A stretch of DNA of 13,353 nt from a virus (lineage: Duplodnaviria; Heunggongvirae; Uroviricota; Caudoviricetes): IMG/VR virus record IMGVR_UViG_3300006149_000003; one strand, 5' to 3'. Below are positions 7,294 to 8,292 of the stretch, one piece after another. Position 1 is the first letter of the stretch. Each line of letters opens with the position of its first letter. The notes below the pieces were generated by a model. That model worked only from the letters and a program-made list of their open reading frames with translations, made no database searches and was not told where the DNA came from. Position numbers and translations under genes: made by a program.

Positions 7294-8292
7294 TTACTCC
7301 CTCTCAGCGCTTTCGCTAAACGGTTTTGGAGCATAAGAGATGAGGGCGTTGCCACAGGTAATGCGGTCGGAATCCTCCTCTTTACTGGGAACAAACACAA
7401 TTACATCCCAGCCCAAATCCAGTAAGGGTTTCTCGAATTGGTCATAGACGCTGTAATTGTCGTAGGTGGTTGTGATATTATAACCGTTTTCTGATGCAGC
7501 TGTGGTTTGATGGATCGGTGTGATTTTGACGATGAACTTCTGCTTATCAAAAAGCTGGTCGAGTTTTGTGGCATCCAGAACCGTCTGCTCTGTAACAGCA
7601 AAGTTCAGAGTGTATTTCCTACCAACCGGAGTAGGAAGAGCGTTTGCGATAGCTGCAATCTCCTCCAGATTTAGAGATTTGCCCGCAAATTGAGCACTCC
7701 GCTGTTCGTCGGAGGTACTGTTAATGCTGAGTTGCAGCCCAGCTTCTCCGTGTCGCAAAACGTTCTTGATTTCACACCATTTTTGTAAAAATTCCGCCAG
7801 CCGCTCGTTGTTTGCCGGCATCATGGTAGATATGACAGGGTGGATTGTGACGGCGTGCAGACCGCATTCTCTGACCAAGGCGTCAAGCCGATGCTCAGTG
7901 AACTCCAAAACCGAGGGATTCCATGTAGGTTCACCCATACGGGCGTAGTGAACATTGAAACGGTTGGTAAACCGTACATCCTCATGCTCAATGATATAGC
8001 GGATTTGGTATTCCAGATCAAGCATTGAGGCGTTGCCGAAGAAGCCGTACTTATGAACGTCACAGAACGTACACTTCATAGGGCACCCTTTCTGGGTACT
8101 GATCGTTGCCACCCACTTGTCCTGAATGTTTACATCGTGGTGCTGAACACCATCAATCTTCTTGGTAAGCCCTAAGAAATCTGCTTTGATATTGTTTTCC
8201 TTGCCATAGTCACCTACGGTTAGGAACTCCAATCCCATCAGCGGATTGAAATAAATCTTCCCAGTATGGGTATGAACAACTTTGGTTTCCAT
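7294..8292 (-). CDS. Radical SAM enzyme, divergent RlmN/Cfr-like
   Basis: ISTQKGCPMKCTFC contains the CxxxCxxC motif in an RlmN-like SxQxGC context. RMGEP, LQLSINS and C-terminal DRITCGN (RlmN has DAACGQ) are present. Start reassigned to ATG at 8292 with an AGGAGG SD, giving 332 aa. Confidence 0.85.
   Translation of the reverse strand: METKVVHTHTGKIYFNPLMGLEFLTVGDYGKENNIKADFLGLTKKIDGVQHHDVNIQDKWVATISTQKGCPMKCTFCDVHKYGFFGNASMLDLEYQIRYIIEHEDVRFTNRFNVHYARMGEPTWNPSVLEFTEHRLDALVRECGLHAVTIHPVISTMMPANNERLAEFLQKWCEIKNVLRHGEAGLQLSINSTSDEQRSAQFAGKSLNLEEIAAIANALPTPVGRKYTLNFAVTEQTVLDATKLDQLFDKQKFIVKITPIHQTTAASENGYNITTTYDNYSVYDQFEKPLLDLGWDVIVFVPSKEEDSDRITCGNALISYAPKPFSESAERE

Follow-up and report, generated by a model that had tools for sequence, protein, structure and literature searches.

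The stretch of caudoviricete phage DNA analyzed here (IMG/VR record IMGVR_UViG_3300006149_000003; 13,353 nucleotides, called the window below) carries on its minus strand a gene for a radical S-adenosylmethionine (SAM) protein related to the methyl synthases RlmN and Cfr. The list of open reading frames (ORFs) and their translations give it as a 348-residue ORF at 7294..8340 (minus strand). Homologues all start at the internal Met17 of this ORF, and the corresponding ATG (8292..8290) is preceded in the sequence by AGAGGAGG (8310..8303) and by the stop codon (8314..8312) of an upstream helix-turn-helix (HTH) gene. The true product is therefore the 332-residue protein that starts at Met17 behind a strong ribosome-binding site, and the limits of the gene given in a first-pass annotation, a model's reading of the letters alone, agree with both the homologue starts and the ribosome-binding site. 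Residue numbers throughout are those of the 348-residue ORF, and the features of the gene are collected in Table 1.

Table 1. Positions in the window of the radical SAM gene and of its main sequence features
Feature	Position	Strand	Basis and remarks
Radical SAM gene	7294..8292	-	332 residues, stop codon included; ORF list, homologue starts, phrog_24834 match
Shine-Dalgarno sequence AGAGGAGG	8303..8310	-	10 nucleotides ahead of the ATG at 8292; read from the sequence
Glu38 codon, probable equivalent of RlmN Glu105	8227..8229	-	At least 90% conserved in the family; hhalign pairs the 'iEfv' strand with RlmN 'VETV'
22-residue insertion E48-D69, between the Glu38 strand and strand beta-1	8134..8199	-	Specific to the phage-type clade; hhalign insert columns, not in distant members (MAFFT)
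Thr79 codon, position of the RlmN resolving Cys118	8104..8106	-	phmmer, BLASTP, and hhalign alignments; never Cys in ~220 relatives
CX3CX2C (C86, C90, C93), [4Fe-4S] cluster-binding motif	8062..8085	-	Invariant in the family; pairs with RlmN C125/C129/C132
MGEP (M135-P138), 'GGE-like' SAM-binding motif	7927..7938	-	G136, E137, and P138 invariant; pairs with RlmN MGMGEP
Cys329-Gly330 codons, equivalent of RlmN Cys355-Gly356 (methyl-carrier loop)	7351..7356	-	hhalign and MAFFT alignments; conservation

To our knowledge, RlmN and Cfr are the only characterized class A radical SAM methyl synthases. They methylate adenine at C2 or C8 by a two-cysteine mechanism, in which C355 carries the methyl group and C118 resolves the adduct. 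The protein of the window belongs to the same superfamily: its sole Pfam match is Radical_SAM (PF04055), at 29.6 bits for a gathering cut-off of 29.5 bits, the Cys triad is invariant among relatives, and the fold matches of its structural model are radical SAM structures only. It stays far below the thresholds of the two named families, reaching 30.8 bits against a cut-off of 290 with the RlmN model TIGR00048, which matched only residues 71-167, and 20-22.8 bits against cut-offs of 468-550 with the Cfr models NF000424, TIGR04432, and NF011024. The family to which the gene belongs is phrog_24834 (function unknown), matched at full length in PHROGs (E value of 2.2e-98; residues 24-336 on profile positions 9-324 of 336). 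The links to nicotinamide adenine dinucleotide (NAD) operons and the gene fusions reported below are not in the phrog_24834 description, and no paper describing this radical SAM family was found in the literature searched.

The AlphaFold model, computed with 50 relatives, has a mean predicted local distance difference test (pLDDT) score of 92.2 and a predicted template modeling score of 0.90. Foldseek places ten RlmN chains on top (E value of ~1e-10; next family, 1e-5), and VIA-align superimposes model residues 2-319 on RlmN 81-363 with a Z score of 24.5 and a root mean square deviation of 2.8 Å over 259 residues, followed by Cfr (Z score of 18.0) and pyruvate formate-lyase activase (14.4). 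Similarly, only RlmN and Cfr fall below an E value of 1e-7 when the family profile is compared with the PDB, and hhalign aligns the family with five RlmN sequences over 256 columns (probability, 99.6%; E value, 5.9e-24). The likeness to RlmN, the C2-methyl synthase of 23S rRNA A2503 and tRNA A37 (PDB 3RFA and 5HR7), thus extends over 256-272 aligned positions of the core fold and takes in the CX3CX2C motif, MGEP, the Glu at the E105 position, and the Cys-Gly at the C355-G356 position, at ~19% identity. With Cfr, the C8-methyl synthase of 23S rRNA A2503 associated with multidrug resistance (PDB 9P0P), it shares the class A core fold and the C-terminal Cys loop. An alignment with RlmN and Cfr and a phylogeny, both proposed in the first-pass annotation, were run; in the maximum-likelihood tree the family forms one separate clade (support, 100) that a long branch divides from RlmN. 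On this sequence and fold evidence, the gene is a stand-alone member of a large uncharacterized radical SAM family that appears to descend from the class A methyl synthases, and any function given to it below is a predicted one.

Part of the RlmN active site is recognizable. The first-pass annotation had described an enzyme that keeps the methyl-carrier Cys and MGEP and has Thr in place of the resolving Cys, and alignment of the relatives bears this out. The methyl carrier corresponds to C329 in the motif ITCGN: hhalign pairs C329-G330 with RlmN C355-G356, and the column holds Cys in 195 of 199 relatives, with the following Gly in 198 of 199. The three last residues of MGEP are invariant. In ATISTQKGC, Thr79 lies seven residues before C86, and phmmer, BLASTP, and hhalign all set it on RlmN C118, whereas E38 takes the place of E105 in hhalign. 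The C118 column was also inspected across ~220 relatives, since homologues that mostly retain Cys had been named beforehand as an outcome that would turn the Thr into a peculiarity of one allele. It contains Thr in 171, Ile in 13, Asn in 11, Met in 6, Val in 5, Leu in 4, and Cys in none. C189, the only other Cys that is semi-conserved among the relatives, was considered as a replacement for the Cys at this site and rejected; the model has it halfway along the third core helix, and more distant members show L, I, M, V, or T at its position.

These alignments indicate that C329 is the single conserved catalytic thiol, situated on the C-terminal loop, and that no resolving Cys is present anywhere in the family. 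Because there is no second Cys, an adduct cannot be released through a C118-C355 disulfide of the RlmN type. C329 could nevertheless remain a methyl carrier, or it could serve as a hydrogen donor or nucleophile; its conservation together with that of E38 suggests that part of the RlmN active site is retained.

Further differences from RlmN lie outside the catalytic residues. RlmN residues 1-~80, the N-terminal RNA-docking domain, have no counterpart, as the first-pass annotation had noted: the structural alignment opens at RlmN 80-81 and the hhalign alignment at 98, and the protein has only ~60 residues ahead of strand beta-1, all in beta strands. An insertion of ~30 residues had been reported before the cluster motif; it is indeed there, relative to both RlmN and distant family members, but comprises 22 residues. 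The protein is acidic, with an isoelectric point (pI) of 5.6 and a net charge of -10, compared with pI values of 6.6-8.7 for the RlmN sequences examined, and four genomes with a family member each also encode a true RlmN (342-430 bits). The genomic company differs as well, in that the family is found with NAD salvage genes, amidases, and an importer. With the resolving Cys lost family-wide, the N-terminal domain missing, the RlmN and Cfr cut-offs missed at least 10-fold, and true RlmN encoded alongside, the proposal that chemistry or substrate is unlike that of RlmN has held up, although what that chemistry and substrate would be is predicted from sequence.

The family is large. In a collection of 5.8 billion proteins, at least 6,498 clusters match at an E value of ≤0.001, the best 120 at 65-89% identity, and an exhaustive HMMER scan of representatives at 50% identity matches 571 clusters. 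Relatives are encoded on at least 488 viral contigs, and Atlas clusters of the family are 83-91% viral. Relatives in phages and in cells of many phyla are 44-89% identical, and 44 alignment columns are invariant. That the gene is a decayed RlmN/Cfr remnant or a one-off degenerate allele is scarcely credible in view of these numbers and of the confident model, and nothing beyond the missing C118 and N-terminal domain speaks for it; conservation excludes a degenerate allele, and the resolving Cys is missing across the whole family rather than from one gene. Relatives of 436 residues, namely P0036, P0060, and P0071 on contigs of viral size (~44 kb), have an N-terminal extension of ~100 residues. 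One source labels the 436-residue relatives '23S rRNA (adenine2503-C2)-methyltransferase,' a label that is unsupported for family members by the present tests. Nor should the resemblance to Cfr be taken as a sign of an antibiotic-resistance gene; in contrast to Cfr, the protein lacks the resolving Cys, and nothing marks it as a resistance determinant.

The cellular relatives suggest a pathway. We sampled 80 loci from species-representative genomes, in which relatives at 44-82% identity occur in Bacillota, Bacteroidota, Alphaproteobacteria, Akkermansia, Treponema, Elusimicrobia, Methanobrevibacter, candidate phyla radiation (CPR) bacteria, and DPANN archaea. Co-directional NAD salvage genes (encoding PncA, PncB, NadD/NMNAT, NadE, PncC, Nudix, and NrtR proteins) adjoin the family gene in 17 of these 80 loci, which come from Alphaproteobacteria, Bacillota, WWE3, Peregrinibacteria, Bdellovibrionota, Nanoarchaeota, Woesearchaeota, and Methanobrevibacter and represent at least seven phyla. 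The arrangement in a Firmicutes metagenome-assembled genome (MAG; locus L033) reads PncA, PncB, Nudix, radical SAM, NadE, NadD, PncC, NrtR; a second Firmicutes MAG (L039) has a shorter variant in which Nudix is missing and NadE stands ahead of the radical SAM gene. The order is PncB, PncA, radical SAM, NadE, NrtR in Enterousia-type Alphaproteobacteria; NrtR, PncA, PncB, radical SAM in WWE3; and radical SAM, NMNAT, NrtR in Nano- and Woesearchaeota, while in a Bdellovibrio relative the radical SAM gene is followed by NadM-Nudix. On the tree, NAD context amounts to eight changes of state, and phage copies 63-66% identical to the protein of the window are interspersed among the NAD loci. Close relatives qualify as accessory members of NrtR-type NAD salvage clusters, and this phage copy does not. 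No pathway other than NAD salvage recurs among the neighbors of the family. Separately, in gut Alphaproteobacteria (L027:5386-6954; similar in L007, L025, and L030), the radical SAM gene is paired with one for a short prephenate-dehydratase-like protein whose regulatory domain is missing.

Because the cellular copies sit in vitamin B3/NAD recycling operons, the substrate is probably a small NAD-related molecule and not rRNA, and the NAD clusters point to the niacin/NAD network, close to the nicotinamidase step. The reading that we favor, tentatively, is that the family consists of small-molecule enzymes of niacin/NAD salvage and that the phage copy would be a self-sufficient auxiliary metabolic gene, as opposed to a methylase of 23S rRNA or tRNA.

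Fusions among the representatives include an ECF-S importer joined to radical SAM and nucleosidase domains, an importer joined to radical SAM, radical SAM joined to an isochorismatase-type amidase, and a thioredoxin reductase (TrxR)-like flavoprotein joined to radical SAM. The fused nucleosidase is a bona fide methylthioadenosine/S-adenosylhomocysteine (MTA/SAH) nucleosidase, at 228 bits against a cut-off of 169. MTA/SAH nucleosidase also removes 5'-deoxyadenosine. The flavoprotein part of the fused protein P0236 has no CxxC pair and apparently supplies electrons rather than reducing disulfides. The genomic contexts of the fused proteins give no clue to a pathway. Related components recur in a distant branch of the family (28-31% identity), whose operons consist of isochorismatase, TrxR-like flavoprotein, and radical SAM genes; L091:1-2436 and L092, on metagenome and MAG contigs, hold all three (isochorismatase-type amidase, flavoprotein, radical SAM) as a tight unit, and the flavoprotein-radical SAM pair is seen again in L090 and L093 and, fused, in P0236.

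An importer and helper domains (nucleosidase, flavoprotein) indicate a small imported substrate without naming it, and such an enzyme could also be unrelated to niacin. It might, for example, methylate free adenine base or nucleotide to 2-methyladenine-type products or act in some other cofactor or nucleobase salvage, the NAD operons then being secondary. The amidases of the distant branch, which are generic and not PncA-like, and the phage copies without NAD neighbors fit this alternative. The repeated co-directional placement in pncA-pncB-nadD-nadE-nrtR clusters of so many phyla is hard to explain on it, however, and no other pathway takes the place of NAD salvage among the neighbors; we consider it doubtful, though less so than the other alternatives.

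A more specific candidate was raised by the importer fusions. In some fused members, the best Pfam match of the N-terminal ECF-S domain is QueT (37-40 bits against a cut-off of 33.7), and the fusion order importer-enzyme-nucleosidase resembles that of the queK-qrtT-queL operon of Clostridioides difficile. QueL of that organism is a radical SAM queuine lyase that acts on an imported small base and is encoded together with an ECF-S importer (Yuan et al. 2019, as summarized in PMC11477304 and PMC11570991). The family might by this token contain QueL-type lyases or other 7-deazaguanine salvage enzymes that yield preQ1 for modification of tRNA or phage DNA. We dropped this identity as very improbable. 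Searched against solved structures at E values up to 10, the family profile matches only RlmN and Cfr, no QueL entry is among the best 50 listed in the Foldseek or VIA tables, and no sequence or fold link to QueL was found in these searches. The nucleosidase of the fusions is of the standard type that removes the radical SAM by-product and is not a queuosine hydrolase; the regions upstream of two fused genes contain no preQ1 riboswitch; and a family member occurs in only 2 of 399 sampled Clostridia genomes. In the phage record from which the window comes (69.8 kb, 52% complete), no tRNA-guanine transglycosylase (TGT)/DpdA was found, a result that also led us to reject a role in DNA hypermodification.

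The first-pass annotation had instead seen a possible nucleic acid modification enzyme: an RlmN-like C-methylase or cross-linker whose target would be RNA or DNA of the host or the phage and whose adduct would be released by a different base or thiol or deliberately left in place. RlmN and Cfr are indeed the closest fold and the only sequence relatives of known function, the C355-like Cys and E105-like Glu are conserved, and the gene is frequently found in phages equipped with DNA methylases. Against this, the RNA-docking domain is missing and the protein is acidic; members of the family are fused to a membrane importer of vitamin type and to amidases; close relatives lie in NAD salvage operons of many phyla; and hosts retain their own RlmN. 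A single-turnover cross-linker would also be unexpected in tiny-genome symbionts under an NrtR-type regulator. The suggested collaboration with the DNA methylases and FolD of the phage did not survive comparison with other loci, given that these neighbors are common only to the three or four closest prophages and that no neighbor is conserved across the 80 genome loci or 80 viral loci. Nothing in the results speaks for a deliberate cross-link to host RNA. We regard an RNA or DNA methylase as unlikely, and as less likely than a small-molecule enzyme of niacin/NAD salvage.

For the niacin/NAD salvage enzyme, the following course of events can be proposed. The enzyme would cleave SAM to generate a 5'-deoxyadenosyl radical, with C329 as a single covalent or hydrogen-transfer thiol. 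Its substrate would be a free small molecule of vitamin type that belongs to the niacin/NAD salvage network and is processed beside the nicotinamidase step, and the reaction on its pyridine or adenine ring could be the addition of a methyl group, a removal, or a radical rearrangement of another kind. Catalysis with multiple turnovers on a small molecule taken up by import is suggested by the nucleosidase for the by-product, the electron donor, the vitamin-type importer, an amidase as recurring partner, the acidity of the protein, and the lack of an RNA-docking domain. Since the phage gene is self-sufficient, host enzymes are the most likely users of its product; the phage copy would feed the host PncA-PncB-NadD-NadE route and may help to keep NAD+ available during infection.

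Several observations weigh against a place in niacin/NAD salvage. No biochemical data on any family member were found in the literature searched. All canonical Preiss-Handler steps are already present in the NAD operons, so no missing reaction can be named. Conservation of the C355-like Cys and the E105-like Glu is also what would be expected if adenine-directed chemistry had been retained, and the distant-branch amidases fall short of scoring as nicotinamidases, so that this branch may use another amide. The window contains no NAD genes, and none was found in the phage record, only 52% complete, nor was a nicotinate phosphoribosyltransferase (NAPRTase); among the 80 viral loci, an NAD gene stands beside the family gene in only one. 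Because phage copies almost never adjoin NAD genes, the NAD link is carried over from the cellular relatives.

The surroundings of the phage copies are otherwise varied. In the window, the neighbors are genes for a 271-residue Cys-rich protein, an AAA ATPase, a split Dam-like methylase, FolD, an HTH protein, a SLOG/YspA protein, a 479-residue phrog_12834 protein, and an N4/N6 DNA methylase. They are common only to three prophages of Oscillospiraceae-type hosts and a few viral contigs, and none is general among the genome or viral loci of the family. The gene for the 271-residue protein (6475..7290, minus strand) begins 3 nucleotides after the radical SAM stop codon, and this short gap makes translational coupling of the two genes probable. 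The protein has no Pfam or PHROG family match, and as a candidate for a conserved phage partner it was discarded, as it is found only in the closest relatives (61-63% identity). In seven viral loci (L151:6951-7550 and six similar ones), the next gene downstream encodes a different Cys-rich protein of ~199 residues, which by eye looks like a flavodoxin-like NAD(P)H-dependent reductase and is a possible electron donor. Bacteroides phage Versailles carries the gene alone within its replication module, and the gene contexts in two isolate jumbo phages are uninformative.

Four further features of the window, all on the minus strand, were recorded. The Dam-type DNA N6-adenine methylase (5088-5524) is divided between two overlapping frames, 5285..5524 covering Pfam Dam positions 11-61 and 5088..5390 covering 59-134, which could reflect a frameshift, a pseudogene, or a sequencing error. 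A full-length FolD (methylene-tetrahydrofolate dehydrogenase/cyclohydrolase) is encoded at 3060-3908 and is not in related prophages. The SLOG/YspA protein (PF10686) overlaps the end of the phrog_12834 protein (function unknown) at 9097-10909, and a protein with HNH_3 and AP2-like domains at 2281-2799 is probably a homing endonuclease.

Other phages are known to act on the NAD+ pool of their hosts. The NAD+ reconstitution pathways NARP1, NARP2, and NARP3 use PRPS-like, Namat, Nampt, Nmnat, PnuC, and NadR-type enzymes (bioRxiv 10.1101/2024.02.11.579819; PMC13464706). A common purpose is possible, in that phage genes would in both cases keep NAD+ available during infection, but the NARP enzymes differ from the radical SAM family, and the term radical SAM does not occur in the search listing for the NARP papers. 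The gene of the window might have a role in counterdefense.

Sequence comparison shows a very large and conserved sister family of RlmN and Cfr in which the methyl-carrier Cys is kept and the resolving Cys is never present, a combination which implies that it must use the RlmN/Cfr scaffold for different chemistry. More speculatively than for the assignment to niacin/NAD salvage itself, we propose that the family carries out an unrecognized radical step of this salvage on a pyridine or adenine ring; that it does so as an RlmN offshoot with a single catalytic Cys and no need for a resolving one; and that thousands of gut phages bear it alone as a means of maintaining or altering the NAD+ supply of the host, perhaps in response to immune systems that deplete NAD+. 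In research on conflict between phages and their hosts, NAD+ is at present a central subject. The recurrence of the family in NAD salvage operons of bacteria and archaea with minimal genomes suggests that vitamin B3 metabolism has a part not yet recognized, and this idea agrees with the abundance of the gene, on its own, in gut phages.

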